47,857 bases of DNA from Spirogloea muscicola (taxonomy: Eukaryota): positions 1,134,336 through 1,182,192 of the forward strand of contig WELB01000007.1 of NCBI GenBank assembly GCA_009602725.1. Direction: 5' to 3'. Below, piece by piece: positions 4,341-47,100 of this stretch; position 1 is the first letter of the stretch; each line of letters begins with the position of its first letter. Below the pieces are notes generated by a model. The model did no database searches and was not told the DNA's origin. It was given only the letters and a program-made list of their open reading frames with translations. Position numbers and translations under genes: made by a program.

Positions 4341-5184
4341 GAAGAAAGTGCTCTCCTAGCGGAGGTAGAGGCTGGGAAAGGCCAGCCCAAAAAGGATAGA
4401 CAAGGTCCGAAGAGCCGAGAGGCGCCTAAAGCCACACAACTAGACACGAGACAACTGCAGAAGGAAGCCTAGTAACCACGGGTGAGCAGCAGCAAGTCGG
4501 AGAAACTCGCAGCTGGGGAAGAGGCACCCCGCCGAGAGCCAGATGGAGCAGCCATGGCGCGGTCTGCTCGCAAGTGAGAGAGAGAAGGGCTCGCCCATTG
4601 AGGATAGGGGCTGGGGAAAGCCAGCGCAGGAAAGAATGAGCGAAGTGCGAGAAGGGGCCAGGGGAAGCACTAAGGAAGACGAGCACGAGAAGAAGCTGAG
4701 CAGCTACGAAGCACTTAGTAACCCCTGCTAAGCAGAAAGTGGCACTCCCAATGGAGGCAAGGGCTGTGAAAAGCCAGCCCGGAAAAGAATTGACAAAGGT
4801 TCGAAGGGGCCAAATGATGGAGGGGCCTGAACAGCGCTAAGCAGCTACGAAGGGGCCTGAAGAAGCTATGTCAGAACGGGGGAGGATGGACCAGTCAGTA
4901 GTTACGAGTGAGGAGCCTCAAATCCGACAGACCAGCTGCCCCAGCGCTAAGCAGCCTCAGGTGGACTGCAGAAGTAGAGCGCGCCCATAGAAAAGAAAAA
5001 GCTGCAGAGAGCTGGAGAGAAGAGCGCGCCCTTAGAAAAGAGGGGCTGGCAAAGCCAGCCCAAAAAAGAATGGACAATGTCCAAAGCCAAAGCAAGAGGA
5101 GCCGGAGAAAGGACTACACTACAACATACTGCAGAACACAGAGACGATGCAGAGGAAAGCTCAGTACCCACGAGTGAGCTGGAG
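4341..5184 (-). mobile_element. Cluster 1 of nested 5'-truncated RLE (CRE-like) non-LTR retrotransposon 3' ends
   Basis: Four ORF-terminal segments ending (L)L(T/S)R(G/N)Y* (stops near 4469, 4715, 4895, 5161), each followed by a 3' UTR with the GGGCTGGC..CCAGCCC hairpin. TSDs gctaagcag (4727-4735/4946-4954) and gagctggag (5009-5017/5176-5184). Near-identical copies elsewhere in the window (4736-4940 vs 13235-13440; 5020-5180 vs reverse complement of 46580-46740). Confidence 0.85.
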
Positions 5185-9306: not shown

Positions 9307-9459
9307 CGTCGGCCGCCCCGCCNGGCTTTTGGCAGCGATGGACAAGGCAGCAGCAGCAAAGGCGATGGCGCCAGAAGACAGCAGATCATATACTTCTATG
9401 AGGGGCTTCCCTCCTCTTATTGATGACAATTCTCATTGCGGCTTGGCTGAGATACTGAC

Positions 9460-10040
9460 CGTGTAGATTGTCCTCAAGATTGCCGTGTTCAAAGAGATCG
9501 TAGACCAGGAGGCGCAGCTCGCCCTCGATGCAGTAGCCAATGAGAGAGGCGACGTGCCGATGGCGTACTGCACCGAGCATCTGGACCTCCGTCTGGAACT
9601 CGCGGTCGCCATCAGGGCCGTCACGCGTCAGCACCTTGACGGCAACCTGCCGCCCAGCCGCTGCCGGCGGCGGCGGCAACGTGCCCTTGTACACCGTGCT
9701 GCAGCCGCCTCGGCCGATGACTGCCGCGTCAGGGTAGCCGCCTGTGGCCGCCGCTAGCTGCGCGTGCGTAAACGCCACCCAGTGCGATTCGAGGCCGGCG
9801 ATGAAGCGCAGGCTCGCCGCTGCATCGTCCCCCGCCATCGGCGACCCGCAGCTTGACGTCGGGCTGGTGGCGTCGCCGCCAACGGCCCACGCGTCGGCAG
9901 CTGCTGTGCTGCCGGCAGGACGACTACCGCTGCTACCGCCACCGTCGTCGCTGTTGCGCGGCGAGAAGAAGGCGTCCTCCGTGTCCCACCCACCAGAGAC
10001 GCCGGGCTCGTTACTGCCACCTTCACTCGATGGACAGCGT
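9460..10040 (-). pseudogene. RLK/Pelle (receptor-like cytoplasmic) kinase fragment: N-lobe exon only
   Basis: FTHAQLAAATGGY...IGRGGCSTVYKGTL...VAVKVL...GDREFQTEVQMLGAVRHRHVASLIGYCIEGELRLLVYDLFEHGNLEDNLH, then a GT donor at 9459. No downstream kinase exons before the single N at 9323. It may be an intact gene broken by the assembly. Confidence 0.75.
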
Positions 10041-10089
10041 GGCAGCGGCGGCGGCGGCGGCAGCGGCGGCAATGGCGGCGGCGGCGGCG

Positions 10090-12661
10090 CCTCCGCTGGC
10101 AGCGGGCCGACGACGTACGCGAGCAATGCGAGCCTGGACGCCAAGGTCACCATCCTCACGCGCGTGTTCGAGATCGCGACGCAGCAGACCGAGGTCAGCG
10201 CCACTGTGCCCCCCCTGCAGCGCAGCCGCCGAGTGCAGCGGCGCCCTTGCACTGCAGACGATCTTATGATGGCCACGCGCTTACGTGGGACCAGGTGGAG
10301 CACCCACTCTGCTTGGAGTGCACACGAGAGCTCTGCAAGGAGCTCGAGGCTGAGGTCGACGAGGTGGAGCGCGACATTGTCGCGTACTCCGCGCTGCTGG
10401 TGGAGCTCGAGGCTGAGCCATCGCACGGCATGACCCACGCGGACTACTCGCTAGAGAAGCAGAAGGTGAGCCGCCGCCAATGTGCGGCTGCTCGGCAAAG
10501 AAAGCTAGCATCCCAGTTGCCTCGAAGCCGGTGCCCATCTTATGGGGGTCATGTGCTAACATGGCGGTAAGAGGAGCTCGAGCGAGCAGGCCTCCTGTGC
10601 CTCCTCAATACAATGTGTCAAAAAGCCCATCTTTGCTGATCTTTCCGCTTCGGCTAGTCGGGGCTTCCATGTGCTGACGTTGCAACCGTGCATTGGCTGC
10701 GCATTACCACGAAGACAGCACTATGACAGTGCCGTGCAAGCGGCCAGCATTGTGTCTTGTAAGGAACACAAAGAGGTACCGGGGAAGGTGCTGATGAAGC
10801 ACGTTGGTGCCAGTGTGCTGTAACGGATGCAAGGCCAGTCACATACCAGCACTCTTCTGCTGGGCGGGGCAGGCGGAGGAGGAGGAGCAGAAGCTGCTGC
10901 GGCAGCTCCGGGGCGTGGAGGAGCAGCAGGCGGAGGTCCAGGCGCAGCTGGCAGGCCTCAGCGTCAAGTCCCGTGAACTTGACGAGCTTGAGGAGCGGTG
11001 AGATATGAAGCTCCATACTGTGCTCCACAGAAACCTCGCCCTGCTACTCCTGGCAGTCAACTAGTGAGCTATGTGCCTTGCGAGGCGGTTGCTCTGGTCA
11101 CAGCTAAATTTGTTCGTGGTGCACACCGGTCACTGCAGATATTGGCATGAGTTCAACGACTTCAAGCTGCAACTGGCGTCACACCAGGTTTGCTGCAGAC
11201 ATTGCACCCCTGTACGCTACATCCTGACCCCTAGATTTGAAAGTGAGAGTACTGGTAGCCAGTTAGCATCTCACACCCCTGACCCAAACACTTACTGTCT
11301 TCTCTTGCTGCTGGTCACATGTCACCAGTCTTGCAAGGAGGCCAGCGCCAGCTGTGTTGCAGATTTGCTGCTCATGCTCCCCACAGCGCAGCAAGGGTTG
11401 AGAGGGGACGCTCACCTGCTGAGCTTGCAGTCAATGATGTCAATGACGTGCGCAGGAGGAGCGCGATGCAGTGTTTGCCAAAATTGAGGTGGCGTCTGCT
11501 CAGCTGGAGGCCCTGAAGCACGTCAACGTCTTGAATGACGTATTTTATATTTGGTACAAGGACGACTTTGGCACAATCAGCAACCTCCGTCTTGGGAAGC
11601 TGCCTCACATTCCGGTTGATGCCTTGCACCTCCATCAAATGGAATTGGGGCATACTCCTTCTCAGCTCTCTGGCTCGCAAGTGTCTGAAGCAATCTGTCC
11701 GAGCAAGAAGTGCATGCCAGAGTTGCCAGGGCTTCTTACGAGAGCCGTATGCGCGAGTAGGTGGAGTGGGACGAGATCAATGCAGCATGGGGCCAGGCCT
11801 GCCTCCTCCTTTTCACCATGGCTCACCTGTGTCGCGTGACCTTCTCGTAAGTGCCCCCAGATGAAGCAACAGCAAAGAGGAGCTCCTATTGCAATGGGGA
11901 TACTGTCATCCTGATCCGTGGGCAGGATCTGAGTGCGACTTGCGTGATTGGTAATGCATAGGTACCGGATCCTACCTATGGGAAGCTATCCAAGAATAGC
12001 TGACAGCAAAGATACCTACAACCTGTGCGTCTCCTCCCACTCTTCGAACTCAAGTGAAGACCTGAGAGCTGCTTGAATTCTCCTTTAAAAACAGGCAGAC
12101 AACCCCACTGTGGGCACTGGGGAATAGATGCTAGATAAGTCAATCTGCCGAGGCTCCTCACTTTTCTGAGCTGTAGTTGCTGCAGTTGTTGCAAACTCCA
12201 CCTTTGATGACACCGTGCTGCAGTTTTGGGCCTGTCAACATCTTCTGGAGCACCCGGTATGACAAGGCCATGGTGTTCTACCTCGCCTGCCTCAAGGAGT
12301 TTGCTGACTTTGCGCACGCCCGTGACCGCGCTGCTGAGCTGCCTCCTGGCCAATCCTGCTTCCAGCTTCCATACAAGTGAGGCTGTTGCTTCAGGTTCCT
12401 CATGCAGCGCTGGTGTCTCTGTGGGGTTGGCAAGCTTCAGGCAGTCCACTGCACATCTGATCCCCAGAGGCTGGTCACTGATGCAGAATTGAAAATGACG
12501 AGGTCAACGGGTTCACAATTAAGCAGAGCTTCAACCGTGAAGAGCGGTGGACCAAGGCACTCAAGTTCATGCTGTGCGACCTCAAGGCCTGCCTAGAGTG
12601 GCTCTGCACTGCTGGACGTGGCACGCCCTCGCACCCAACCTCAACAGAACCCAAGGCGTAG
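10090..12661 (+). CDS. ATG6: Autophagy protein ATG6/Beclin-1, multi-exon, N-terminus not found
   Basis: [147 protein letters not shown]. Stop at 12659-12661. Start coordinate is approximate. Confidence 0.92.
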
Positions 12662-13100: not shown

Positions 13101-13861
13101 GGTTGTCTTCCTGGGCTAGTTTTATACAGCCATCGCCTCTTCATGGACAGGATTGCTGTGTAGGGGCAGAGGGCCAGTGGCGACAGTGGCATGGGCGGGA
13201 GAGGGCTCGCTTGAAAGTAAGCCTCTTCCAGTAGAAGTGGCACTCCCAATGGGGGCAAGGGCTGTGAAAAGCCAGCCCGAAAATGAATTGACAAAGTTTC
13301 GAAGGGGCCAAATGATGGAGGGGCCTAAAAAGCGCTAAGCAGCTACGAAGGGGGCCTGAAGATGCTATGTCAGAACGGGGGAGGCTGGACTATTCAGTAG
13401 TGACGAGTGAGGAGCCTCAAATCCGACAAACTAGCTGCCGGAAAACTATCCCCCTGACGAAAGCCGGAGGCCGCAGCGAGAGCACGGCCAGCACGCAGAC
13501 GCAAGGCGTGGGCCATGGACCGCTGAAGGGAGACGGACAATCGCGTACGATATACCTAAGCCCACGAGCCAGCGGAGGGCGATGGCTGTGTTTCCCTAGC
13601 TCAGAAAAAGAGGGAACAGCTTTCGAGGGGCCAGGCAATCACTAACGAAGCTCAGGAGGAATTTTCATGTACTGCAACAATCGAAGTCCAAAGTGGCCAC
13701 GTACTGAGAGGGAATGAAGTGTACTAAGAGATCGAGGGCCTGTGTGGCCAAGTACAAAGGCAAGCACATTGAAATGAAACGGCTGCTGAGCGGCTGTGAA
13801 AGCCAGCCAGATGCAAACAGGTTTTTATGACGGAGCCACAGGCTAGGCAGACAGGGCGCTC
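13101..13861 (-). mobile_element. Cluster 2, part a: stacked 3'-end remnants of RLE retrotransposon families
   Basis: 13235-13650 is the same family as 4736-4945 and encodes ...RLSVSLQRSMAHALRLRAGRALAAASGFRQGDSFPAASLSDLRLLTRHY* (stop 13394). 13780-13860 is the UTR shared with 23580-23670. There is a degenerate plus-strand hairpin end at ~13101-13160. Confidence 0.8.
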
Positions 13862-15283
13862 TTAGTAACCCCGTGTCAGCAGTAGGAAGTCAGATGAGCT
13901 GAGGGGAGAAAGAGCAACCCCGCTGCGCAAGCCAGAGGCTGCTGCAAGGGCGCGACTTGCGCGGCGATGCAAAGCAAACGCTTGGGACCGCTGTAGGGAC
14001 ATGGATAAACGCATGCGATTGCAGGACACAAGACCAAAAGGCACCGAGCCACCGGGAAGGGGTGTACCCTGTTCCCGGCGCTGCTGGTCAGCTTGAGATG
14101 CCAGCAGCGAAAGTAACGAGTACCACCGACCCCCGTAACACCCATGGATGTCCATGGCCAGGGGGTAAAAGGCATCACCCGCCGGGTGGTCCTTGTACTT
14201 GTGCATTTTCTACTGTTCGGCCACCTTCACGGCATAGCCGGTCTCAGAAGTCACAGGGCCCTTCGTCCAGAAGCTGTCGGTTAGGACGACGTCCATGAGA
14301 AGCCGCTTGCCACCTCCCAGGGGTTCATTCTTTTTTGGGCCGGCTTTGCCAGCCCCTCTTCTCTATGGGCGCGCACTTCTCCCAGGGGGACGCCAATTAG
14401 ATCGACACGCCGCGTCCAAGGGACCCCGTTGCGGAGCTGGACGGGCATCACCCCGGTGCTCTCCGCCGCCACTTGATATCCCGCCTCCTTGACGATGCCA
14501 TACTTGGCGTCACGTAGGAAGTGTGGGAGACCGTGCGCTCACTTCCTTTGGCACACCTGAGCATGTGGTCACCCATGAGCACTGCATCATGCTCAATAAG
14601 CCCACCTTCACATTGGGTCACCCCTGCCAAGCACAGGGATGGTAAGCCAAGACGGCGGCGCATACCATCGCAAAACAAAGCATTTTCCATCCGCAAGCCC
14701 GCAGGCAAAGGCAAAGCGCGGAGCCACTCAGACGCTCCCAGAGACGAAACAGATAGGAGTCGAGCCTGGCCTCGAGCATCCCCTTGGAGGAGACTCCGAA
14801 GATGCTCCAGGTTGCTCGTCTGCAGCACAGGAAAACCGCGATTGAGCCTTAACATCAGAAACGTCAGCCCAGGCAGCAAAACTAACAGGCTCATTCACCA
14901 GAGGCGGGTATGCGGCAAAGAGGTCCTGTTGGCATGCTTTGAGAGTCACTTGGAAAGGCAGACTCCCCTGAACCACGTTACTGATGTGAGGCGCCAATAC
15001 ACGACGTTGCTCAAGGAGGAATCGTCCAGATATGGACGAGGCCACCTGAGCCCAGCAGCCAAGGTACGCTGGTCTGCATAAGCGGACCAAGGGGCGACAA
15101 CCAAGCCCACCGTGACGTATGGGCGAGCAAGCGCGGCCAGATTAACTGGTGGCTGGGAGAGGCCAGGGATGGGCAGCGTACATTGCACCAGTGCTGCTGG
15201 AGACTGCTCTAGGAGTGGGTGAGCAATCAGATCAGCAAGGCATTGCTGAAGCTTGACATCAATGGATGCATAGACCTCATCCA
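13862..15283 (-). mobile_element. Decayed CRE-like RLE non-LTR retrotransposon: C-terminal ORF region (post-RT segment, Zn-knuckle, restriction-like endonuclease), cut by the gap
   Basis: After removing two mini-insertions the frame reads QCTLPIRHGGLGCRPLVRLCRPAYLGCWAQVA ... QARLLSVSSLGASEWLRALP...MRRRLGLP...CEGG...DHMLRCAKGSERTVSH ... RRVDLIGVPLGGGKRLLMDVV...AE Q*KMHKY...FYPLAMDIHG...RLSMSLQRSQA...LLLTRGY*. Frameshifts and one in-frame stop are present. Clade assignment is from motif recall. Confidence 0.85.
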
Positions 15284-15638: not shown

Positions 15639-18600
15639 ATGCAGTACCGCGGGGAGCCCCCCGAGTACCACTTCCGTCCCGCCGGCCGCGGCGGCGGCGC
15701 CGCCGGGCCCTCGCCGTCTGTGAGCGCGCGCCCCAACCCCCCGTCCTGCTCTTCGCCGCACACCACGGCCGCGCCTCCGGCCGCAGCCGCCGCGAGGACC
15801 GCGGGGGCCTGTACTCCCCTTGGGCCACCGTGGAGGCATACTCCCATGTCTGCGCAGGCAGGGCTGGCCTTTCCCCTCCTTTCTCAGTGCTGACTCGTGG
15901 TTACCGAGCGGGTCAGCTTGGCAGCAGGTGATGTACACCTGTCGATGTCCTTGCCTCTGTACTTGGCCACCCAGGCCCTCCACCGCTCAAGACAACCTCC
16001 ATATCTCAGTGCTGGAGGCAGGCCTGGACGAGTGCGTGCCTCTGCTGCGGGCACTGAGCTTGTCGTGCCGCGGGCCCGTGGGCGTGCAGGAGCTCCCGGC
16101 CTACCGGGAGGGCTTCCCAGGCGGCCAGCGCGGGCCGGGGCCTCGGCCAGGCGACGGGGGCCGCGGCAGGTTCTCCGACCCCGCCGCCCGGCGAGACCGC
16201 GACGGCGCCTACAAGCACGACGGCGGCGGCGCGTCGCCGGCCAAGGGCCTTTACGTGAGCGGCGCAGCTACTTGCCCCTCTGCTCTCGCCCTGGACGCAC
16301 GGCGCACCGCGCCGATTTGCCTACCATCAGACGCTTTCCGCGCATTGTCTCGCCAGCCTCTGTCACTGCTGTGCGCGTGACAAGTGCGGGTGTCCGGCAC
16401 ACTCAATTATGAGCACTGTGGTTGTGGCCTTGCAGGACGTCAGAGGGCCCTACCCAAGTGACAGGAACGGCGGCAGAGGCCAAGCTGACCGTGGGCTTCC
16501 AAGGTCTGACGACTACGACGGCAGGGGAGGCGAACGCAGAGACCGAGGGCCTCCACCTCCTGGCCGCAAGGTGAGTGCCGCAGTGTCCCGTTGTCGTCGG
16601 GCACTGTTGCTGGTCTACCTTTGTGCGCCAATTATGTGTGGGAAGCCGTTAAAAGAGCAGCAAGCTCGTCATATGCAGGCAGCAAGTGATCCGAACGACA
16701 TAGGTGAGCCAACGGAGGTCCTCTGGGTGGGGTTTCCACTGTACCTCCGCGTGGACGAAGCGGCCCTGAGGCAGGAGTTTGCGGTATTTGGCGAGCTGGA
16801 GCGCATACGCGCCTTTCCCGGTCGCACGTATGCATTCGTGCAGTTCAAGCGCCTGCAGGACGCCATCACGGCCCGGGAGGCGCTGGAGGGCAAGCTCTTC
16901 AACGACGCGCGTGTTCATATTAAATACTCAAAGACCGAGGAGGAGAAAATTGCGGAGCGCAAGGACGATGTGGGCCCGGGCTCTGGCAAGAAGCTCTTGC
17001 GGGGCCTCACAGATGCCCATGGCGGGGATCTCTACCACGATGCTGTACCACATGCATGGGGGCCCTCTGGGGCCGGCCTCGCTCACAGCGAGGGTGATAT
17101 CCCCAGCTGGCAAGGAGGCCCTGCGCGGGACGAAGCGCATCTGAGAGAGTTTGCTTATCGGGATCCCAAGCGCGCACGGATGGCGGGGCAAAGCTTTGGT
17201 GACGGGCAAACAGTCCTACCACTGGAGTCACTCGCCGCAGGTGTCGCATACGAGCACGGCCGGTTGCCGGCTGAGTCAACTATTGATGTGGGCCTCAAGC
17301 CCGGCCCTCCAGGCTTTAATCCTGGCCCCGTTCCCGGCGCCCCGGGTCAGCCGCTTCTTCAGGCGCAGTACTCGGACCGGAATGCCGCGTGGTTTGGTTC
17401 CGTGGCCAAAGGTGGCGTGCACGTGTGCAAAGCGCGGTCGTCGTCCCTGGGCAAGCCCCTTGATGCGGCATTGTGAGTTGCTCCGAGCAGCCTACTTGTA
17501 CACGTCTTGTCAGTGGGGAAGTGGCTGCTTACCTGTTGCAGGTGTGTTGCAGGTGCAAGCAACAAGGCGTAGGCTACTTGCGTCTCACTTTGCGCAAGCT
17601 GAGTCACTGTGCAGCTTGGCTGGTTGCTGGTACTATTTCTCAATAATCTTGTCAAGCACTTCATTAGCTGTCCAATCGGCTCTTTCCTGGGTGCAGGCCG
17701 GATGTCATTGACTGCCGAGCACGGACAGACCTCGACATCCTAGCGCAGCATGTGTATCAGGCCGGTGACTTTGGTGTGGTTGCGCTCCTGCCTGAGGAGG
17801 ATCCGGACGTCCCACCATACGAGGAGTTCGTGCAGTATCTTGGAGAGAAGCGGCGCGCCGGCGTAGGAGAGCTCGCCGATGGCTCCACGCTCTTCCTGGT
17901 GCCTCCGTCGGACTTTGCACAAGTTGTCCTCAAGGTCCCCCGCAATGACTGCCTCTTTGGGCTCGCTCTCAAGTACCCCCCAAAGCAGCCGCTGGTAGAC
18001 AGTAGCCATACCGCGGGGCCGCCGGCCCCGCCGCTGCTGCCGCAGTCGATGCAGCACCAGCAGGCGCTGTTGCAGCAACAGCAGCAGGCAGCAACAACTA
18101 GCGCGCAGGCGTTTCAGCCGGCGTCCCATGCGCCACCGTCAGGCCACTATACGCAGCAGGTGCAAGGTTCGCAGCAGCAGTACGCCCCACCCCGTGCACA
18201 GGACGTTGCTGTGTTGCCTGGGCAAGCAAGGCCGGGGCCTGCGCAGGCGCCGCTGGCCAGCCAGGGGGGCCCTCCGACGGGTGCGGCGGCGACTTCGTCC
18301 CAGCTCTCAGCGCTTGCCGGAATTCAGGGTCTCACGCCGGAGCTTCTTGCCACCATCAATGGGCTGCTTGCCAGCAGTGGTCAGCCTGCTCTCCTGTCGG
18401 CCGTCCCCCCAGGCATTGCAGCCCCGCCGGGCCCGTCACCGCCGCCGCCGTCGACTATGTCGGGCGGTCCTCGGCCTCCTCCACCAGCAATCAGAGGCCC
18501 TCCGCCACCTGTAGGACCTTCTTCCAGCACCGCTGCGGCTGTGGTGGGCCCTCTTGGGGGTCCTTTGCCGGGCGTCTCGCTGCCATCCTATCGGCCGGGC

Positions 18601-19068
18601 ATGTTTGCGTCCTCTGGCACTGCGCTGCCGCCGCCGCCCAACTGGCAGATGCAGCAGCCACTGCAGCACCTGGAGGCGGCGACAGCGTTGCAGGCTCACC
18701 AGAGCGGCAGCTCAGGGGCAGCACTGCAGCCGGCGGGAGGGGCAGGGCCGTCACTGTATGCGGCCCAGTTTGCAGGCCCGCCCCGGTTGCAGCAGCAGCA
18801 GCAGCAGCAGCAGCAGGCGCAGCAGCATCAGCAGGGGCCTCTTCCGCCTGCCACCGCAGCTCCCGCCAGCGCGCTGCAAGGCTTCCAGGCAGGCTCGGCG
18901 CCAGCACCTCTGCACTCGGCGGCCTTGTACCCGCCGCCGCCACTGCCGCTGGCGCCGCAGCAGCAGCCGCTACCAAGGCCAGGCATAGGGATGGCCGCAG
19001 CACCAGCGCCGGTGCAGCTGCCAGCCGACCAGCTCGCCCAGCTGACGGCGTTGCTTACGCAGAGGTCT

Positions 19069-19148
<80 letters not shown>

Positions 19149-19830
19149 GCCGCAGCAGCAGCAGCAGCAGCAGCAACTGCAGCAGCAGCAGCAGCCGCAG
19201 CCGCCGGTTGTGCCCCAGCCGAACCCACTGCAGCAGCTGCAGCAGCAGCAGCAACTGCAGCAGCAGCAGCTGTATCAGGGGGCTCCTGCTACGGTCCCCC
19301 CGCAGCAGCCAGCACAGGCAATGATGATGCAGCAACCCCAGTACAGGGGACCACCCCAGCAGTACCAGCAATACCAGCAGTACCAGCAGCATGCGATGCA
19401 GCAGCATCCGCTACAGCAGCATACGGTGCAGCATACGCAGCCGCCGCCACAGCAGCAGCTAGCCTCGGGCACGAGCAGTGCCTGGGATCAGCAACAGCCG
19501 CACCACCAGATGCCGCGACCGACACAGCCGCAGCAGCAGCAGCAGCAGCCACATCCACAGCAGCAGCAGCATAACGCCGCCACTTTGCAGGCGGCGCAGC
19601 ATCAGCAGCAGAATCAGCAGCAGCAACAGCAGCAGCAGCAGCAGCAGCAGCACCAGCAACAGCAGCTCGTACAAGCAATGCCGCCGTCGCAGCAGATGTT
19701 GCCTGAATCGTCAGGGGCAGAAGGGGATGATAAGTCAGAAGCAGAAAAGCAGAAGCGTTTCCAAGCCACATTGCAACTTGCTGCCGCACTCCTCCAGCAG
19801 ATGCAGCAGCAAAAACCGGCTGGGACATGA
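15639..19830 (+). CDS. FPA: FPA-like Spen-family RNA-binding protein (RRM + SPOC + Q/P-rich tail), multi-exon
   Basis: RRM PTEVLWVGFP...FAVFGELERIRAFPGRTYAFVQF...LEGKLFNDARVHIKYS. SPOC domain WFGSVAKGGVHVCKAR...|PDVIDCRARTDL...YEEFVQYLGEKRRAGVGELADGSTLFLVPPSDFAQVVLKV. FPA-type C-terminal helix KRFQATLQLAAALLQQMQQQ. The true start may lie in the upstream gap. Confidence 0.85.
19069..19146 (+). repeat. (CAG)26 coding trinucleotide repeat within a larger Q-rich region (~18790-19810)
   Basis: Uninterrupted CAG run seen directly, in frame in ORF 17752..19830. Confidence 0.9.
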
Positions 19831-21619: not shown

Positions 21620-23870
21620 TTAGAGAGATGGGCTCGCTTATAGAGGATAGGGGCTGGGAAAGCCAGCCCAGTTAAGAATGAACAAAAACCAAAAGTCCTT
21701 AGGATGGCATAAGCCAACCTTTCATATGACGAGCGGCGGACTTAGCCGCAAGCCTTAAGCAACGCCCCGGCTCAGACTCAAATGGGTGATGACTTCTTGA
21801 TGGTGAGGAGTATCATCGCCATCAGGCTCAGGTACACTGTAGTGAGCAACCCGGCGAACGAACTCCCTGGCGTGTAGTCATATGCTATGAATGCGCCATG
21901 AGCCTGTTGTCTGTTGGACGAGAGCATCAATCTGGAAGGTGTAGCAGTGGAGACGAGGAAGGAAGTGGTCTTTCTAAAGAGGTGGCAAGTTGGTGTAAGA
22001 AAATGTGTCAAGTGAGCGAGAAATTGAGGGAGATGGAGGAGATCTTCAAGTAAAGAGGGAAGGCGCGCAGTGTGCATAGGATGAAAGGAGGCCAACCCGA
22101 GTTTAGGTAACAAGACGACAGCAAAGCTGGAGGGGGACCTCAGTACCCACGAGTGAGCACAGACAAAGCCGACAGGCTAACTTGGGGAGCCGGAGCACCG
22201 CCACAGAAGCCAGTGGCCTGGCTAAGACACGCCCAGCACGCTGGTAGATTGCCAATGCTTGAAAGCTGCAGACAGCGAAAGCCACCTTTTGTGACATGCA
22301 ACTATTGCGTGCGGAATCCTAGACTGCACAAAGCTGCCCCCCCAGCTGCGGCGACGCGAATCAACCAGCTGGGCCAGATGCTGGAGGAGAGAGGACAAGG
22401 TTAACGGCGCCATGTGCATTCTTCCCATAAGGCAAGTACAAGGTTCTGAAAGGGCCCAAGTAAACAGCTCTTTCAACGCAAGGCAATGGCTGTGAGAGGC
22501 CAGCCCACAGAAAGTGAGCTCCTCCAAAGGGGGCGGGGCTGTGAAAAGCCAGCCCAGGAAGAACTGACAAGGTCCAATGGGCCGGGTGGCGCCAAAACCG
22601 CCCAGCTATGCAAGAGACTACAGCGGATGGGAGCTTGGTAACGAGTCAGCGTCGTAAATCGGAGTAACTTGCAGCTGGAAAGAGAGAATGAGGCACCTGG
22701 ATGAGACCCAGAATTGGCAGCCACAGCGGGGTTGCCCACAAGTGTACCGTGTGAGCTTGGGAACGTTGGAGAAAGTTTGGCTCTCTTGGAAGGAGACAGG
22801 TAGCCGCATGCGGAACACCTGGGCAGGCGACCTGGCGGCGTTGAAGCCGGGCAGCTCACCTTGCGGTCCCTGCCGACGATCGATGGCCGGCCGTGTAAGT
22901 CGCTGCAGGAGGTGCACTGAGCTCTTCCACAAAGAATTGACAAGGTCGAAGGGGCAGAAAAGCGCTGAAACACCGAGTAAACAAGTACCATGTAGGAGAA
23001 GCACTTCCAAAAGCCAGTCCAGAAAAAATGGGCAAGGTCCCCAGTGCCGAAAGGGGCTGAAAGCACACTGCTGTGCGAGAGACTACAGCGAACGGGAGCT
23101 TCGTGACACACACAGCCGTCCCCCTCTACTGGAAGAGTCTCTCTTCATAGTAAGCCCAGAGCCCAAAGGAATGAACAAGGTCTGAGACCTGAGAGGGCCG
23201 AGAGGCGCAAACAAACACGAATCTATTCTCCGTGATTTTTGTGCGAATGACGCTCAACCTCTGGTCAGCAGAGTGCAGTGATCGGAGTAAGGAGAAAATT
23301 TCTGCTACTGCGGAGTTACTAGGCTCCCATTCGCTGTAGTCTCTTGCATAGCTGTGTGGTTTTGCCGCCTCTTGGCCTTCTCTTGGCCCAGGGGGAAGAA
23401 GAGAGAAGCGCGGCCAGATTGACTGGTGGCTGGGAGAGGCCAGCCCAAAGAAATGGACAAGGTCTGAAGGAGCCGGATGGCGCAAAAAGCAAGGTACTAA
23501 GAGGGAAAAATGCTTCCAACAGAAGCTTCTCTTTTTCCCAGAGGGCGACTGCTGTGCGAGGCCAGCCCAGGAAGGAATGCGGCTGCTGATACTGAAAGAG
23601 CGGCTGTGAAAACCAGCCAGATGCATACAGGTGGTCTTGACGGAGCCACAGGCTAGGCAGACAGGGCGCCCTAAGATGTGCTTGCCTTTGTACTTGGCCA
23701 TTTGGCCTTCGTTTGTTTCAAATACACGATATTTCTCATAGTACCCGCGGGTCAGCACCAGGAAGGCAGCGCTTGCTCGAAGTCAGATGAGCTGAGGGGA
23801 GAAGGCGCGGGCGGTGCGCATGAAATTGAAAGGGAGGCCAGTTCTAGCCTTACAAATGTCCTGTTCACTG
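21620..23870 (-). mobile_element. Cluster 3 of nested RLE retrotransposon 3'-end fragments (several families, mostly minus strand)
   Basis: Hairpin ends at ~21650, 22490, 22540, 23430, 23550 and 23600. ORF-terminal segments at 22140-22410 (same family as 47268-47520), 22637-22900 and 23740-23800. TSDs ccaca (22505-22509/22927-22931) and gaag (23762-23765/23779-23782). Confidence 0.82.
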
Positions 23871-24456
23871 GGTAATGAGCTGGCTAAGGGGGACACTGAT
23901 ATATCCCCGAAGGGGAGGAAACAGAATAACAAAGGGGCCAGATAAAGCGCTGAGCCATACAGGGACTCCACGTGGCCACGAGGCACTCTGTACCAGAGGG
24001 CGACGCGGACTACGACACTCTCGCAGCTCGGCCTCGCCGGCGGGCCGGGCAGCGCGGCGGGCCTCGCGGCGGCGATCGCGGGCATGGCGCCGCCGCCNNN
24101 NNNNNNNNNNNNNNNNNNNNNNNNNNNNNNNNNNNNNNNNNNNNNNNNNNNNNNNNNNNNNNNNNNNNNNNNNNNNNNNNNNNNNNNNNNNNNNNNNNNN
24201 NNNNNNNNNNNNNNNNNNNNNNNNNNNNNNNNNNNNNNNNNNNNNNNNNNNNNNNNNNNNNNNNNNNNNNNNNNNNNNNNNNNNNNNNNNNNNNNNNNNN
24301 NNNNNNNNNNNNNNNNNNNNNNNNNNNNNNNNNNNNNNNNNNNNNNNNNNNNNNNNNNNNNNNNNNNNNNNNNNNNNNNNNNNNNNNNNNNNNNNNNNNN
24401 NNNNNNNNNNNNNNNNNNNNNNNNNNNNNNNNNNNNNNNNNNNNNNNNNNNNNNNN

Positions 24457-27400
24457 CGGCCGCCGCGGAGGGCCGCCCGCCGCCCCGGACGCTGCCGCTG
24501 CGAGAGCGCAGCGTGCCGGCCACCCCGTGGGCTCGCGTCATGGGGTGAGCCCCCGCCAGACGGCGCGGCACGGGCTTGGCAGTGCGCCGATGGCCGGTCG
24601 TGCGCGCGCTCTGCCGAGCATGGATCAGGGTCCAGGCTTTAAGGTTTTAGGGTTTAGGGTTCGAACGGGCGGACGTGCTTGGCGGGTGCGGATGGTGCCC
24701 CACGGCCGCGGTCTCACCGGCGCGCTGCCTGGCTTGTGGCGGCGCCCCAGCCAGATTCGCGGGCTTGGGGGCGGACCTGGCGCTGGGCACCCTCCAGGAG
24801 TCGGCGCGGCGGCTCCTGGTGGGCACCGGCAGCGGCGGCGAGGGCGCCGGGCGGGCGTTCAGCGCGGCGCTCACGGAGCGCAACGCGGAGCGGCTGGCGC
24901 TGGCCCTGTGCCGCATGCGCGGCGCAGCGCTCAAGCTCGGCCAGATGCTGAGCATCCAGGACGAGGCCATCTTCCCGCCTCAGGTGATGTGGTGGCCTGC
25001 GCCAGCAGCACTTCTACGCCGAGGCCCGAGCCTGTGCCCTTTGACGGCTTGACAAGTTGCAGATCCAGATCCGGGGCGATTGTGGATCATATTACTGCAT
25101 GCTGTAAGCCAAGAGGCCGAAGTATGTCATGTGGGCGTTGTCTGGTATACAGTTCTGGTGAGCTTGTTAGATTCAGTCAAAGCACGCTGGCAATCACTGC
25201 AGCTGCTGTTGATAATCTAAAAGCACTAGAGATCATGCAGACTTCCTCTCCGGCTGCCCTTCCTTGTCTTGTGCAACAAGGGTTGGTCTTTTTGCAAACA
25301 GAGTTGGTCTTTCTGAATGCCCTTTGAGAACCTGGTCTGCATGCACCCTGCTCCGCAGATCCTGCAAGCACTGGAGAGAGTAAGGGCTGGCGCGGACGCG
25401 ATGCCTCGGCGTCAGCTGGAGCAGGTTCTGACGGCGGAGCTGGGCCCGGAGTGGAGAAGCAAGCTGGCGGACTTTGACTTCGTTCCCATGGCAGCTGCCA
25501 GCATCGGGCAGGTCACTGCACAGGCCGCTCTGGGATAGAATGTCGGGTCGCATGAGCACGAACATCGAAGCACCAGGTCATGTTCTGACGTTGCAAGCTA
25601 ATGCACACAGAGCACTGCACAGGAGCAGATGTGCAATCCAGGAGAAGTGCATGTCTGCAACTTTGCATTTTCGCTTCGCAGACATTTCCTTATTCCAGCA
25701 GCAACAAGGAGTCCCTGCTGAACCTCTCGTGAGATGCTGTGCTTAGTGCTACTGAAAGTTGGAGAGCTTTCCTCCTGCCAGATGTGTCTAGCACACATGC
25801 TGGGGAGGCCGGCGGCTGAGGCAGGTGTGGCTGATGTGGCCATGGATCCTGGCGAGTTGACTCTGCCAGGTGCACAGGGGGGTGATGGCAAGCGGGCAGC
25901 ACGTGGCAGTGAAGGTGCAGTATCCGGGGGTGGCTGACAGCATCGAGAGCGACATTGAGAACCTCAAGCGGCTCTTGCGCTTCACCAACCTTGTGCCCAA
26001 GCAGCTGTACCTTGACCAGGCTATGAAGGTGAGCATCTTGCAGCTGCGTGCAGCACAATCATCCACTCCTCTTGCCATTGGAGCGTTCCTCACAACGACG
26101 GGCATTTGCTAATGGAAAAGGCTATACGTCCCAGGTTCTTGGGTTGGCTTCCTTGACTTCGCAGCATGGCCATGCGCTGAGCTGCCTCCATTCCTGAGCC
26201 CACAGTCACGACTGACGGCAGGTAGCCAAGTCTGAGCTAGCCAGGGAATGCAACTATGTGGCGGAAGCGGAGAGCCAGAAGCGGTACCAGGCGCTGATGA
26301 AGGGCGAGCACGGTTATCACGTTCCTGACGTAATAGACGAGCTCTCAAGCCGGCGCGTGCTCACCACCGAGCTGGTTCCAGGTGAGCAGCTGAGCCTCCT
26401 TTATGCTGTGTAAGGGTCAAGCTGTCTGAGGGCGAGATATTTTGTCCTGTCAAGGTTGGACTTCAAACGGAAATTTGAGCAGATTGTCAATCTCAACCTC
26501 TGTGTGCCCAGCGTGCAGGTCTGACCATTGACAAGGTGGCGAGTCTTGGCCAAGACGTCCGGGACAGCGTAGCAGAACGTCTTTTGAGGCTCACCCTTCG
26601 AGAATTATTTGTCTTCCAATTTATGCAGGTGAGCTTCAGCCTGTGCTTCAGGTGCTTCACAGGTGGCCCTGGTTAGCTGCCGGTGCCTTGAGAAATGGCA
26701 ACTCAGCTTCTTAGAACAATTAACATGCTCCCAAGCTGCAGCCTGTCATCCTTGCGCGAGTGTGTCATTTCTGGTGGATATTTCTGGCCTAGAACAGAGC
26801 CCTGATAATGGAAGAATGAGTTTGGACATTCTAAGCTCTGTACTTGCCGAGTAGGTACTGACTGGTGACCTCAGCTGTGCCTCTGCCGTGTTGCACATTG
26901 ACAGACGGATCCAAATTGGGGCAATTTCTTGTATGATTCTGAGACTGACACGATCAACCTCATCGATTTTGGTGCAGCGCGCAACTATCCTAAGCCATTC
27001 ATTGATGACTATCTGCTCATGGTAGTCACATACTGCCTTCAGCACTTTGACATCATGCATTTTATGATACGAGACCGGCCATAATAAAGTCCTGGGCAAA
27101 TAAACCATGGCATCACATTGCAATATCCAGGTCTAGTACCTCCCCTGCATGGAGCAAATTTGACCTCTGGTCATGATTCCTTTCCTAGGAGCTTACTCTT
27201 TCTGACAATACAGGTCTTGATAGCGAAGCAGCGTACTGTGCAGGTGCGAGCATGTGCTGATAGAAACGGAGACAAAGTCATTGCGATGTCAAGGCGACTG
27301 GGCTTCCTGACTGGCGACGAAAGTGAGGTGCTGCTCGACGCCCACACGCAGGCGGCCTTCATGGTTGGCTTGCCCTTCTCCAAGCTGGGCAACTTTGACT

Positions 27401-28674: not shown

Positions 28675-31600
28675 CTATGATCTCTCTGCAGCGGCCTCAG
28701 CAGCTCGTTGCCGCAGCATCTCATTGACTGCTGCTCGCCGCCTTGACTCCATCTGTAGCGTTAATCGCTTCAGATGATCCTTCAAGTCTCTACACAGCAC
28801 AACAGCAAAGCCATGCAATTACATTCAGTCATGGAAAGCATAGCATGAGAGCTTGCGCAAAGTTGTGAAAGGTCCTTCTCAGATGACCCAAAGACCCATA
28901 TGACAAGGCAGCAACAGTGAGTGGCCAAAGCTAGGCTGTACGCCTTACTTGCACCGAGGCACTCGGCACCCAGGCTCTTTGCAGGATCGTGCATGGAGCT
29001 GAAGGAGAGTCCACATGCGCTTGCAGAGCGTGCAGCCCCCCGCCACTCTGATGTTGCACATCCTTCCATGCCAGAACAATCGCTTCACGCTGCTGCACTT
29101 GGGATATCCGCAATTCTGCCTGATGGTACACACGGACGCATGTCCCAGCAGCTCCATCATCTTCCGTAGCTGCAAGGAGTCAAAGCACAACTTTTGATAA
29201 GTAGCCCTTCATACCTATATAAAATGACGGTCTGCACACAAGCACCAAGTTGAACGCAGTTGCTCCAGAGAAGGGACAACCCTATTACCTGTAACACTCG
29301 CTGCTGACGGGCCTCCTTATTCTGTGCGTTGCGGTCTTGAGCTGATGGATGAGGCACGAGCTTGTGCGGATGCTTGTGTGACTCATAGCACAAGTTGCAG
29401 AGGTCAAAATCGGGGCAGACATCACACCGCCAGCCAGCACCAGTCTCAATATCCTTCTGGCACTTATTGCAAGTGCAAACGAATGCTGGGGCTGTTGGGT
29501 TGTGCAAGTGGTACAAGACCATCATGCTGGAGTGCTTGGCCCGCCGCAGGGTGTCATACTGATAGTGGTTGCCCTGGCAGAGAGAGAGGAATGCTTGTCT
29601 TGTGTCAAAAAATTCGGACTCCATAATCTCATCTTGATCCCTCGTCTCGGCTGGCGCATCCACCACCTTCTCCTGCAGCCCATACAGCAAAGACTTGATT
29701 CAATGAGTAGGTAGATTATTGAGGGGCAACATAAGGAAATGCTTCTGTTTTATGAGACTACACCCCAGTCCCTCAAGGACCTCAGCCGTCCACAATATGC
29801 TGAAGCCTCAGCCTCATTCGGTTTGCAGCTCAACTCAATAACAAAGAAGGTATACAGGGGTCCCAAGAGAAGATTCTGACCATAATCAATGGATGGGCTT
29901 CTTTCGCTGCTATTGGATGTCTATCTTTATCATCCCTTCGGACTTCAGCATCATAGCAACTGTGCCAACCAAGAAGTAATAGTCCATTAATAGGTGCTGC
30001 TATACGTGCTGAATGACTAGTGAGGTGCATGTCTAGGTATCTCAAAACATTGACCATGCAAAGAGAAATTCAAGGAAGCACATTGACCATCACCATAAGT
30101 ATATTGTTACGTGCTGACCTCCGACACAAATTGAAGGAGGGGCATTGGGCACAATAATAGCGGAACCCAGATGTGATGAAGTTTCGACAGTGGGTGCAAC
30201 AGTGATGCAGATGGACCATGATGAAGTCCTCCTTCATGGGCAGTATTGACTCCCCCAGCTGGATTTAATAACGTCAATCAGTCAGCTAGAAGTCTCAAAG
30301 CATGCTATGGTACGTCCAGGTAGAGAGGGGAATAAAGTAAGTGTCAAAACAAGTCAGAGGACAGCCAAAGTCTTGACATGACAGACCCAATGTGCAAAAT
30401 TCAGCCCTGGCCCTAGAGAGTAACAGCTGCAATGCTGCAAGCATCTCAACACGATGTAGCTTGCCTATGCCAACACATACCTTGTGCATGAGCTGAAGGT
30501 CCAAGGAAGCATTGGCAGGTAGCTCCTCTGGCTCTGGCAGGCTCTTCCCACCACGCTTGTTAGGTGCCGCCTTGGTCTGCTTCTTTCCCTTCTTCAGGGT
30601 CTTCTTTTTTGCGTCCTCCTTCCCTTCCTCCTGTATCTCAAAGAGGTACTATGTTCATGCTGCAGGCTAGTGCACCTGCATTTGGACACACAAAGACCAG
30701 CAAAAACCTGGGACATATACGTAGGAGGAGGACCTGAAGCTGGAGAATCATGTCCTCGGCAGCACCAGGCCAGTAGTCCCCATCGAAATATGGTAGCCTG
30801 GCAGCTGTGACCCTTGCCCTGCTCTCTCCCGTGGTCACAAAGAATGTGTCGTAGAGATTTACAGTCTCCACCACAATACCCTCATTGGCTGCCTTCCGCA
30901 ACATTGAGAGATACCTACAACCACTCAAAAACTTGATAAGACTCTAACAATGGCATCAGGTTGCTTGCAAAGACACCTCCACTTGTTGCTCAAGAGGTAA
31001 AGAGAGACTGCAGCACTCTTGAAGTTTGGTGTGTTTTGACATTTGCCAGACTTTTGCCATGGCTAAAAAGGAGCAGTTATGAGAAATTAGTTCTACACAC
31101 CACTCTCGAAGCTTGTCAGACTTGGGAGTCTTCTGTATCTCTGGATGGCAGTAGAGTATGTAATCCTCCCCTTTCAGCGGTGGACAAGCCCAAATGTAGC
31201 AGCTGCTGAATCCCCGCAGCTTGCAGAAGTCTAAATATGCAATCTGCACATATAGACATACCAATATTCGGACAGCAATTATAGCAGATTCAAGAACGTG
31301 ACATTGATACACAAAAGATTCTGAGCACAGTGTGTGCAAAAAGACCTTCATGCATTGCAACTAGCCATACCAGAATCTCGTGGTATATGTATGTGCGAAG
31401 CGCGTCTCCAGACACTGTCCTGACGTCTGGCCGGAAGTACTTCACAGAATCCAGATAGGATAGGTAGACTCTTCTATGGTTTGGTTGAGCACAATCTGCT
31501 CCAAATTCTTGCACGTACATTCCAAAGAGGCACACCTCCACGCCTTCTATCCGTTGAAAGAGGAGGACGACCTAGACAGATTATCGAGCCCACACCTTAA

Positions 31601-34600
31601 GTACCAGAGCAACAGCTTCAAAGAATTGCCTTCGCAGCAAGAAGATGAAGGTCTTGCGCCCCACATAAATGTTCTGCAGCCTTTGTAGTTGTGCAGCACT
31701 TGCACACAAGCAAGGGTTCGAGAAGCTGGAGGTACCAAAGCTCACAAAGACCTGCAATCGTAGGTTAAATAACGGCATATCTATACTTCATTTTCATTTT
31801 CCTCTGCATAGAGGACACATTGCTCAAAGTGACCTACCTTGGACTTGTATGCAAACTCAGAGGCGTAGTCATGCTCCTGGAAAATCTCTAGGAATCTTGG
31901 CTTGGTTTCCACTTTCTTGTCAACTGAAGATACCACCCTCACCACAAGCGCTTCAGCTGCAGGAACCTGCTCCATCAAGGCAATGCAGTCAGCGCCAAAG
32001 CCCATAAGCAATCATCCAAGACATACTTGTAGCAGCTGATAGCATCAAAATGCTGTAGCTGGCGATGCGTGAGGATGCGTCCCTTGCGCCTAACATCACA
32101 CACTTAAGCTATGTAATCACCTCCTCTGGTGGCTGCCCTGACCGCGCTGCTCTTTCCTTCCTCTCCTGCTCAAGCTTCACTGTCAGTCTTCTCTCTAAGT
32201 GGTCGCTAAGAACTGTCTTCGGAAGGTCCTTGGCTCCAAGAACAGCAGATGGGGGGAGGGGTTGTCGATTGCCAGCTTCCATCTCCCTGCAACAACATTC
32301 TGGGCAAGTGTATGCAGCCTCGCCGCCCTCATTGCGACGGGCATTGAAGAGAGCGCATATCTGGTGTTGCCACTTCTTGCACTCATCGCATTCCACCCAC
32401 TGCACCAGGAGAAAGCAACCATTCATGTCACTGGCAACAACATGAGCACAACTTAAGGTTTGTTCAAATTGAATTGTCTATATTATCAACAGTATGTTCC
32501 TCTAATTAAGGGAGCAAATACAGGTCCAGGGCCAAAGTGACTGATCAGATGTGCAAGATACAGTACATTAGCAGCACTTACCCCTTCCTCTGTTTCTTCG
32601 TCATTTTTCCGCTTCTCCAACCTAGCCTTTTGGTAGGTTGATCCTTCCATCTCCACAACATCGCCCTTGATATCACCGTAGCAAGGCCCGCAAAAGTAGT
32701 GCCTCGATTCTCCTATGCCAACAGTGTAGTACACTGCGTTCCTCTTGATTCGTGATCCACACGCAGTGCAGTATATTGGAGGTGGTTCAAAGGAGAGTCT
32801 CTCCATGGCACAGAGTGGGCATGCATTCTCATTTGGCTCCATGGCCTGATTCTTCTCTGCCCTAGCCTTGCTCTGCATATCACAACCAATCCAAACCTGG
32901 AGTCAAAAATTGCTGGTACCTATCAACGTACTGTCAATGCACAGCTTCATTCCCCCCCTCTTCAGGGGTCCTCACATCAAGGTCAGCAACCCTGTCAGAA
33001 GTACAACGGACCATGAAGTTGGGGTACAGGGCGCACTGCTCACCTGGCCCACCCACTGTTTCAGGCCTCGAATGTGCTCCCTTATCATCTGAGGAGTGAA
33101 GAGCTCCATTAGGGAGGCTGCTCCACTCTTCCTCGCTTTTGGCGCCATGGCTGAGGCATTTGCCAAGGCTGACGTTGAAGAGGCCTGGGCTGCAGCCCGC
33201 TGGCTGGCTGAGGCAGCGGTGACTGCCACAGGAGCACCTGCTACCTGCTGCGCCAAGGGCCTCCCAGCCTTGGCCTCTTGCTTTGGCACTTTGCCATTCA
33301 GAGCTACAGACTCGACCTTGACAGGAAGACGATGTGTAGTGCCCAAGCTGCTTGCTTCCAGCTTCACCTCTGGCTTCACCTGACCTGCCTCTGCTCTGAG
33401 ATCGACCTTGGAAAGAGGCTCGACTTTCACAGCAGGCACGTCGGCCTTGACTCGAGCAGAGGGCAAGTGCTCTCCGTGGGGCTTGGCAGTGGCAAACCCT
33501 ACGTTCACCTTAGCAATCCTCTCTTGCTCCACAACATTAGCACCAGCAAGTGAAGCTGTCATAGATGTTATCTTTGGCTTCTTGCTTGGGGGTGGCGATG
33601 CAGCTGAGCCTGGAGATCCCACGCCATCCACATCTTCCTGCTGGCGCATTGCAGAAGCAGCAACTTGGCCAGGGCCTGGCAACAGTCCAGCAGGTTGAGC
33701 GGGCCCCTGCCCAGCCAAACCGCAGCCGGTAGCGGTAGTCCGCGAGGCCTGTTGCGCCTGCGCAGCATTGTTGGCTGCCGACGCCCTCTGCTGATGTACA
33801 GCCCTCCTCACCGGCTCGCACACGGGGCATCTCGTGTCCCTGCAACCCTTGTGATGCTCAAGCAGCGTCCGCGTGGCAATACAGCGTTGGTACGTACACT
33901 GAGGGTCCCGGCAGGCGGAGACGTGAGCCCACAGCTGGCGTGCCATGCTGCAGTGCAGCGTGGCCGTGCACTGGCCTTCAGGAGCCGTGCATTTGCTCCC
34001 ATGTCGCAGAAAGTGGAGCCATCTTTGCTGCTTCTGGTACTGAGCTGCCCGTTGGGGGTCCACAGCTACCGCTGGAGCCGTGGTGCTTGGCGGCCCCGCT
34101 GCTCCAGCATCTGCACGGGCTTGCGTCACAGCCAAATGCTGACCTGGCTTCTGAATCCGTGCTTGCACCTGAGCTTGAGATTGAGCCGGGCCCTGAGCCT
34201 GCGGCTGCGACTGCCCTGGCGTCAGTTGAGAAGCCTGCGCGAGCGCCTGCACGTGACCCTGGCCCTGCCCTTCAGCCTGCTCCAGCGCTCCAGCTTGCCG
34301 TGAGTGCAGATGTTGATCTACACTCGCAGGTACTGTCTGCTGGCTGGCCGACAGGTTTGCCCGCCCATCTTTGCCCTTCACCAGAGCCTGCTGCCGCAGC
34401 AGATTCATTGCGGTGCTGCCCACCTGCTGCTGAAGCTTCTGCTGTGGCTGCTGCACGGACGTAGTAGTGGAAGTATCTGCACCATACGTGGTTCCGTGAC
34501 GCAACTGATCTGGCGGCTGAGTATCGTGCTGCTGCGGCTGCTGCTGCTGCTGCATTGGTGCCAAGCCAGGCACTGGGATCATTTTGCTGAGGGGTTGATG

Positions 34601-36472
34601 GCCCTCGGACACAGGCGCTGTGGGCACCATCAATGGTGGCGTGCTGCCGAGCCCTCCGCCCAGATCCGCAGCGTTCATAGCCATGCTTGAGGGGTTTTGC
34701 ACCATGGCTGTCATGCCAATTGAACCTGCAGCCAGACATAGCAAAGTAAATGAATGACCTTTGACTGGTGCTGATATGCAAAACTTGACAGCATATATGT
34801 CCTGCACTAACATACGTGCATGACATGTTCACTATAACAACCTTGAAGTCAACAACGCAAGAGTTGGGAATGTGGAGATAGTTGTTGACATGATGGTGGG
34901 GACATGTATTGTGACAATTAAGCGCAACATTTGACATTGCTCTTCCAACTATGATACTGGTGGCTCTGACGAGGACAAGTCTACTGCTTAAAACTTTCAG
35001 GCACGTGGGCTGCACGTGCAGGTCACCCATATCCTCCAATCTTTCTACAGATGACACCATGATTCATCAACTGGCAGTCCTATGAACACGAGCATGGTGC
35101 TCTTGAGGTCCAACATAGGTAGTTGCCTTTTGACGGACTCCGGAGATGAGGGGATGAGAATTATAAGTGCACCTGGCATACGGAGTTGCTGAGTCTGCTG
35201 CCGCTGGCGAGCCTGGGACTGGAGCTGCAGGCTCTGCTGGTGCTGCTGGAGGGCATTGGAGGAGCCATAGCTCCCCACGCCATTCATCATGGTGCCATTG
35301 GTCAACGGGAAGCCCTGGCCGTTCGCCATGGCCCCTGGCATCCTCGCCGAAGTCAGCTGCTGCTGCGGCACCAGCATGCCGCCGATGACTCCGCCAGGGG
35401 TGGGTATCATGTTGCCAGGATGTGCCCCCATCATGTTGCTGCCAAACCCTCCCACGGCGGTCGGCATCGAGTTGGAGCCGGGCGTGGGCATCATGCTGGC
35501 GCCCGTGCCCATGGCGGAGCTCGACGCCGGCGATGGTGGCCTCTGATGCATCTGCATGCCCTGCCCTCCTGCGCCATTGGCAGTTGCAACCTGGCCACGG
35601 TTGACTGAGGGCATCATCCGCTTTGCGACCTGCTGCAGCCGGTGCTCCAGCGTGGAGACATCCGCATACACCTCCTGCGGCAGCACACATGCGAAGGTGA
35701 GTCATCATGCCATGCTCCCACACATTCTACAGCTGCTGCTGGGGCTGAGCCATAGTGAACGATGCATAAACCCTCTCCGCTTGTTCTCCTCAGCAGCTGC
35801 TCCTCGCCTCGACCCCCCTGTAGACCGGCGGTCACATGTGCATTGCCTCCCTGCCCTCGCCGTGCGCCCTACTTAGGGCATGTTGACTGCACCCTGTACT
35901 GTGGCCCTGAGCTTGCAAGAAGCGGCCCCTAAGTCCTCCCGCAGCTATGCACGAGCCTGCAGCAATTTCGTGCACAATTGCCAACGGCTTGCTCTGCCAC
36001 CGGTGCTGTAGAAGCAGAAGGCGACTGAGGGCAGGCCCCCGGAGATGCATGCGCAAGGCCAACCTTTGAGGAGGCATCCTTGTACAGCTCGTCTTCCAGG
36101 CACTTGACGAAGTCGGTCAGCCGGTTGGCGGGCTGCTGCGGCCGCCGCTGCTGGAACAGGGACAAGCTGAACCAAGGCAGCAGCACAATGACGAGTCACG
36201 AGAAGCCCCCACCCTCCATGGCCACCCGTAGATGGTCATGACGTTAGCCCGGCGCTGCGAATCAACGGTGCTGCAGCTGTGTGTGCCGGCCCGAAAGCAT
36301 GCTGGCCAGCCGTGTGGGAGGCGGGGGGCGCTCACATCTGCTGCAGCACGGCGGTGCGGAGCGAGGAGTCGCCGTCCGTCTGCCAGGTCCGCCAGGCATT
36401 GGCGCCGAGCCCCGCGGCGCCCGGCGGCGACTGCTGCTGCTGCCGCGGCCGCTGCACCACGTTCGCCTGCAT
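28675..36472 (-). CDS. HAC1: HAC1-type CBP/p300 histone acetyltransferase, multi-exon
   Basis: TAZ ([13 protein letters not shown]...CPVCEPVR); [80 protein letters not shown]...[50 protein letters not shown] fingers; C-terminal [15 protein letters not shown]...[14 protein letters not shown] at 36472, stop 28677-28675. Confidence 0.95.
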
Positions 36473-45790: not shown

Positions 45791-45799
45791 ACGAAGCAC

Positions 45800-46890: not shown

Positions 46891-47100
46891 GAAAGCAAGG
46901 TACTAAGTGCTGAGACGGCAGCAAGGGGACTCTCAGTAAACGTCTAGTCAGTAGATACAAATGGGAATAGGTAGCAGGCGGATAGACGCTAAAGAAACGG
47001 TGTTAAAGGAACAGCTCTTCCAATTCACAAGTGAAAAGCCAGCCCGAGAAGAGTTGACAAGGCCGAAAGAGCAAGCGCGGCCAGATTAACTGGTGGCTGG

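Follow-up and report, generated by a model that had tools for sequence, protein, structure and literature searches.

A gain of 17 nt at positions 23762-23778 was found in the window, the 47,857-nt stretch of Spirogloea muscicola DNA that was analyzed. The 17 nt most probably consist of a target duplication and the terminal 9 to 13 bases of a second retrotransposon family, family B, left by TPRT that halted at about 9 to 14 bases and whose 5' end was still joined. This reading is based on the absence of the 17 nt from the informative paralogues, on the direct repeat and the terminal match, on the orientation opposite to that of the host, and on the longer sister insertions flanked by target-site duplications (TSDs).

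The gain lies near the end of the ORF, on the minus strand, of a REL-type non-LTR retrotransposon fragment. Read directly, 23762-23782 is GAAG-GCAGCGCTTGCTC-GAAG, where GAAG occurs once in the paralogue (13875-13910), which bears out the original prediction of 13 extra nucleotides flanked by GAAG. The last codons of the host ORF (..SSSDF/LVLTRGY; 23741-23803, minus strand) carry the resulting frameshift: the minus-strand ORF of the paralogue ends in ..SSSDFLLLTRGY*, and the copy at 23762-23778 is shifted by 17 nt after ..SSSDF. The paralogous LINE copy without the 17 nt (13865-15283, minus strand) comprises a post-RT region, CCHC, REL domain, and ORF stop, and the host 3' UTR (23575-23669, minus strand) belongs to a family that is high copy in the run contigs. 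The host flanks of the gain are identical to the paralogue at 41 of 46 positions. Eight other ORF-end copies in the window were aligned; two of these (15887 and 5164) are not homologous across 23762-23778 and are uninformative, and all six informative paralogues lack the 17 nt. The empty site is represented by these paralogues only.

Four public DNA runs (X1 to X4), all from one sample, contain the stretch. A 130-nt contig of X1 covers 23707-23836 with no differences, and its depth of 39.8 is that of a single locus, compared with a summed X1 depth of 2146 just to the right of the gain. A contig spanning the gain is listed for X1 and is not among the contigs listed for X2 or X3. A contig of X4 (depth, 318.8), from a different host copy without the family-E insertion described below, covers 23740-23769 and either carries the 17 nt or merely aligns to the first 8 bases of the target. 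Host copies bridging to 23779/23784 account for 9 of the 12 contigs listed out of 209, and the 13-mer is found in none of those listed. An assembly artefact as the source of the 17 nt is ruled out by the spanning X1 contig. The original prediction was to fall if the 13-mer belonged to the host consensus; this origin is ruled out by the paralogue alignment and the run contigs, since the 13-mer is absent from the informative paralogues and from the listed bridging contigs. Because paralogues lack the 17 nt, an X1 contig spans them, and the bridging contigs are without the 13-mer, the gain is a genuine, derived feature that is seldom found among host copies.

The 13-mer at 23766-23778 (plus strand) is read as a family-B tip in sense orientation, opposite to the host element. 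It matches the family-B terminus in the copies at 15125 and 47069 (exact copies) and 46773 at 12 of 13 positions, as originally predicted, or at 13 of 14 when the preceding G is counted, with an exact match over the last 9 to 10 bases. These copies are 3' fragments on the minus strand, of 42 nt (15125-15166; 6- to 8-bp TSD) and 40 nt (46773-46812; perfect 14-bp TSD) inside LINE ORFs and of 37 nt (47069-47105; no clear TSD) in a head-to-tail chain of termini; variants occur at 23401, 44834, and 45667. The 5' junction of the 40-nt insertion has about 9 nt of (CAC)n-like sequence (46804-46812) that is absent from family copies, possibly from slippage or untemplated addition.

The terminus itself was examined with the X1 contigs aligned on 15100-15189 (n = 1048). 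Among those listed, contigs break off at 15125 (45 contigs), 15126 (72), 15127 (15), and 15129 (45), with a flank agreement of 0.38 to 0.41. Because contigs break off there with unrelated flanks, and because TSD-flanked copies also fix this position, ..GCTTGCT(C) is the true 3' terminus of family B, without poly(A), and the 17-nt gain ends at it, as a product of TPRT should. The X1 depth profile over the same interval is shaped by edge effects and does not represent a truncation spectrum. Family B is a high-copy, LINE-type, poly(A)-less family, whose fragments of about 40 to 50 nt, arranged head to tail, are also present in the run contigs; a search of metagenome_contigs with the exact 31-nt donor pattern yielded 0 loci. 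One diverged copy (45667-45860, minus strand), in which a B-type terminus stands behind a LINE ORF end (..LSDLRLLSRRY*), is the only one that links the family to an ORF; the family also has a 3' stem sequence in common with ORF-linked families, and the RT domain is found in relatives and not in the window. This stem, GGGCTGG..CAGCC, occurs 25 to 45 nt before the C/T-rich end in families A, A2, B, D, and F and is a candidate RT recognition element.

The 17 nt can be divided in two ways, each with one mismatch. In the first, an exact 4-bp TSD (left copy, 23762-23765) is followed by 13 nt (23766-23778) that match family B at 12 of 13 positions. In the second, an 8-bp TSD (23762-23769 and 23779-23786, 7 of 8 identical) encloses 9 nt (23770-23778) that match exactly. 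The right copy is the same as the target sequence of the paralogue, and relative to this empty site a duplication is present in either case, of 4 bp exactly or of 8 bp at 7 of 8 positions. With 41 of 46 flanking positions identical to the paralogue, one change within 17 nt is to be expected. By alignment the two divisions are equally parsimonious, which would leave the TSD length ambiguous; the 8-bp TSD is somewhat preferred, because neighboring insertions have TSDs of 6 to 14 bp. In PMC2912911, 5'-truncated L1 copies are described as having more short TSDs, most of which lengthen once a substitution is permitted. An A at donor position -11 would favor the 13-nt division; the contigs differ, although no variant letters are listed there. 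Of the claim that TPRT was aborted at about 13 nt and resolved with a 4-bp TSD, the aborted insertion with a TSD is supported, given that local templates match worse and that sister insertions measure 29 to 262 nt, and the figures of 13 nt and 4 bp are not established.

How readily such a structure arises by chance was assessed in several ways. By itself the 13-mer motif is weak, with 0.25 matches per shuffled window. When the 17-mer was compared with six termini in both orientations, its score was equaled by 6 of 20,000 genic control 17-mers, and when random 9-mers followed the same 8-bp repeat, none of 20,000 reached the observed score and 23 reached a score of 9; these p-values are somewhat optimistic, because the tested termini were picked from this window and do not represent all families. 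That the 17 nt are an 8-bp tandem duplication plus 9 untemplated bases resembling a terminus by coincidence is very improbable in light of these 9-mers, even with the weakness of the motif and the several trials implied by about two dozen other gaps of at least 4 nt, many of them noise, in ten alignments of paralogues. A blind scan of the window with nine termini returned the 17-nt event as its top hit. Of 100 null windows, 1 had a terminal score of at least 11 combined with a TSD score of at least 6, and 22 had such a terminal score combined with a TSD score of at least 4; with a 4-bp TSD, the blind-scan hit is not significant. The window has 2 short terminal matches whose TSD score is at least 6, against a null mean of 0.81, so there is no excess beyond the 17-nt event in this window, in a scan that requires an exact terminal 8-mer, missed family-A fragments of 29 nt and about 20 nt, and therefore undercounts.

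Templated end joining typically produces insertions of such a size, and a staggered break might have been filled in with bases copied from family-B cDNA, RNA, or DNA or from a nearby template, without an element endonuclease. Family B is very abundant, and 22 bp away is a related terminus, of family C and inverted (9 of 13 positions, 8 of 10). The best local templates within 2 kb, however, reach 10 of 13 positions with at most 8 contiguous, against 10 exact bases and 13 of 14 positions for family B, and the inserted piece ends exactly at the last base of the family, which random DNA capture would not predict. We therefore regard such a repair origin as quite unlikely.

Other 3' fragments in the window show what longer insertions of these families look like. 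Clear TSDs were found in 7 of 16 other fragments, measuring 14, 6 to 8, 10, 7, 9 to 12, 8, and 7 to 9 bp for inserts of 40, 42, 55, 29, 155, 262, and 107 nt, respectively; the remaining nine had none or had short or low-complexity repeats, so this set is biased toward recognizable repeats and short TSDs may be undercounted. The 17-nt event sits at the bottom of the local size series of 29, 40, 42, 55, 107, 155, and 262 nt. Two nested insertions lie close to it: a family-E 3' fragment of about 66 nt (23674-23738, plus strand) in the same host copy, with a degraded duplication of about 7 bp read by eye, and a 107-nt family-C 3' fragment (23804-23910, minus strand) with a TSD of 7 to 9 bp (23795-23803 and 23911-23919). 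Another very short insertion, at 4966-5008, is a family-A 3' tip of 29 nt whose 7-bp TSD is perfect. On the minus strand at 47031-47230, a family-C end, a family-A tip of about 20 nt with a (CT)n tail, the 37-nt family-B end, and a family-D fragment stand head to tail, a chain that could reflect template jumping or serial insertion. At least seven REL-LINE families, related to one another and without poly(A), contribute 3' fragments to dense mutual nests in intergenic clusters at 4340-5180, 13235-15283, 21620-23910, and 44660-47857, and no long terminus matches were found in the genic stretch of 24.5 to 44 kb, a distribution that could reflect target preference or selection.

With family-B copies of 37 to 100 nt common nearby, the 17 nt could also be the remnant of a 40- to 100-nt insertion with an 8-bp TSD whose 5' part was later lost by microhomology-mediated deletion. 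The host copy is old, as its 41 of 46 identity to the paralogue indicates, and target and element are partly similar at the 5' junction. This history requires a second event, ending exactly at the left TSD and sparing it, and the local size series already reaches down to 29 nt with an intact 7-bp TSD; it is unlikely.

The preferred course, an aborted insertion by TPRT, would run as follows. A REL-type retrotransposon protein would nick the minus strand at 23779, with priming on the last base of the RNA and no 3' microhomology. Reverse transcription would then halt with a cDNA of about 9 to 14 nt, and the plus strand would be nicked 8 (or 4) bp from 23779. Joining of the short cDNA would make use of the imperfect similarity of target GTCAG to element GGCCG, over 1 to 5 bases, and the present GGCAG would stem from one later substitution or from mixed repair of the imperfect duplex. 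A stall of the RT at the base of a hairpin is a possible cause of the halt: in family B a 4-bp hairpin is predicted whose end is 13 nt from the terminus, and this would account for a stop at that point. The fold of this hairpin is not significant (z, -0.44), and compensatory changes were found in 0 of 9 pairs.

The class of the host element was assigned from its proteins. ORF pieces in the window match P0003 and P0005, and P0003 is 70% identical to window 47313-47855. Pfam gave no match in two ORF pieces of the window and no RT in P0001 to P0008. A search with P0005 found 402 relatives, of which 150 were listed and 17 long ones were scanned with Pfam; 13 of these 17 passed the RVT_1 cut-off, with the domain placed upstream of the region that matched, and the PDB matches of one RVT_1-bearing relative were R2 proteins only (9nl3 and 9dou). 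The Atlas search returned eukaryotic clusters only. The host families, which we take to resemble the CRE clade, are by these sequence criteria REL-type non-LTR retrotransposons: RT followed by a CCHC knuckle, xHD/N, and PD-(D/E)xK-like motifs was found in the host family. A relaxed REL consensus derived from PMC12857005 fits 51 of 154 stored proteins, P0003 included. A sequence-specific target of the CRE/R2 kind was not seen at nine junctions, which have nine different target sequences, too few for a logo, and unrelated flanks (agreement, about 0.4). Predicted gene models P0001 to P0009 include translated LINE ORF and 3' UTR fragments, and in P0006 a LINE fragment is fused to an EDC4/WD40 gene; REL-LINE repeats seem to be poorly masked in the annotation of this organism.

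The rest of the window is eukaryotic in character, with Pfam domains of ZZ zinc finger, transferrin, RRM, kinase, and APG6 types. Its closest protein hits bear EukProt identifiers beginning with SM000, the form used for the zygnematophyte S. muscicola. A transferrin-domain exon (39313-39936, minus strand; Pfam E value, 1e-10) was observed in this alga, as were an RRM gene with long Gln tracts (16259-19830, plus strand), a ZZ-finger gene of CBP/p300-like appearance (29157-35700, minus strand), and overlapping antisense ORFs at 9386-10570 with kinase (minus strand) and APG6 (plus strand) matches. A few degenerate TTTAGGG-like units adjoin a GC-rich block at 24644-24661.

Severely truncated TPRT products are already known, and the 17-nt gain, as read here, is such an event of unusually small size. 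The 5'-truncated L1 copies described in PMC2912911 likewise join a 3'-anchored copy to a direct repeat at the target, their short TSDs also extend with one substitution, and the empty site is inferred from a host repeat there as well. Unlike L1, the element here lacks a poly(A) tail, and its endonuclease appears to be REL type rather than APE. Neither hallmark of poly(A)-only L1 insertions (a poly(A) tail and a TT/AAAA target) was found, the termini in the window being C/T rich. Insertions of poly(A)/poly(T) only, such as that in NF1 exon 25 (PMC3219598), are also severely truncated, with the extreme 3' end of the RNA alone copied; those tails are 60 to 178 bp long and cannot be assigned to a donor, whereas here 9 to 13 informative bases name the donor family.

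Truncated R2 insertions joined by end joining, as described in PMC11331408, also involve an RT of the REL-type superfamily, have a precise 3' junction, and show a 5' join with little or no microhomology. R2 is specific to rDNA and mostly joins opposite the first nick, in contrast to the families here, with no common target at 9 junctions and TSDs of 6 to 14 bp. According to PMC12857005, the CRE, SLACS, MoTeR, and FoTeR elements also have a CCHC-like knuckle, xHD/N, and E and D motifs C-terminal to the RT, and their truncated copies likewise outnumber full ones; in comparison, P0003 has a longer knuckle spacing (12 residues between second C and H) and the motif RLD instead of R/KPD, and no telomere or spliced-leader targeting was seen in the families here. 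In the literature searched, with most subscription journals outside it, neither these families nor a traced insertion of less than 20 nt was found described. The original prediction that insertions this small can escape detection agrees with the L1 screen in PMC2912911, whose limits were 50 bp and 10 kb for the insertion and at least 5 bp for the repeats, and whose 50-bp floor would miss a 17-nt event.

The finding concerns a single old event in a dead repeat, with no evident function. It suggests that retrotransposition can finish when the cDNA spans about one helical turn, and since there is no poly(A) tail, the donor of even a very short product can be identified, as it cannot be for L1. 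It is doubtful, though conceivable, that REL-LINE RTs of this organism often stop 9 to 14 bases in, at the base of the first 3' hairpin, and yet finish integration, leaving thousands of TSD-flanked insertions of 10 to 30 bp that are unseen by repeat annotation and account for a measurable fraction of small insertions. If such events are common, they would be mistaken for ordinary small indels, and the distribution of their lengths would show the stall sites of the RT and the position of the second nick.
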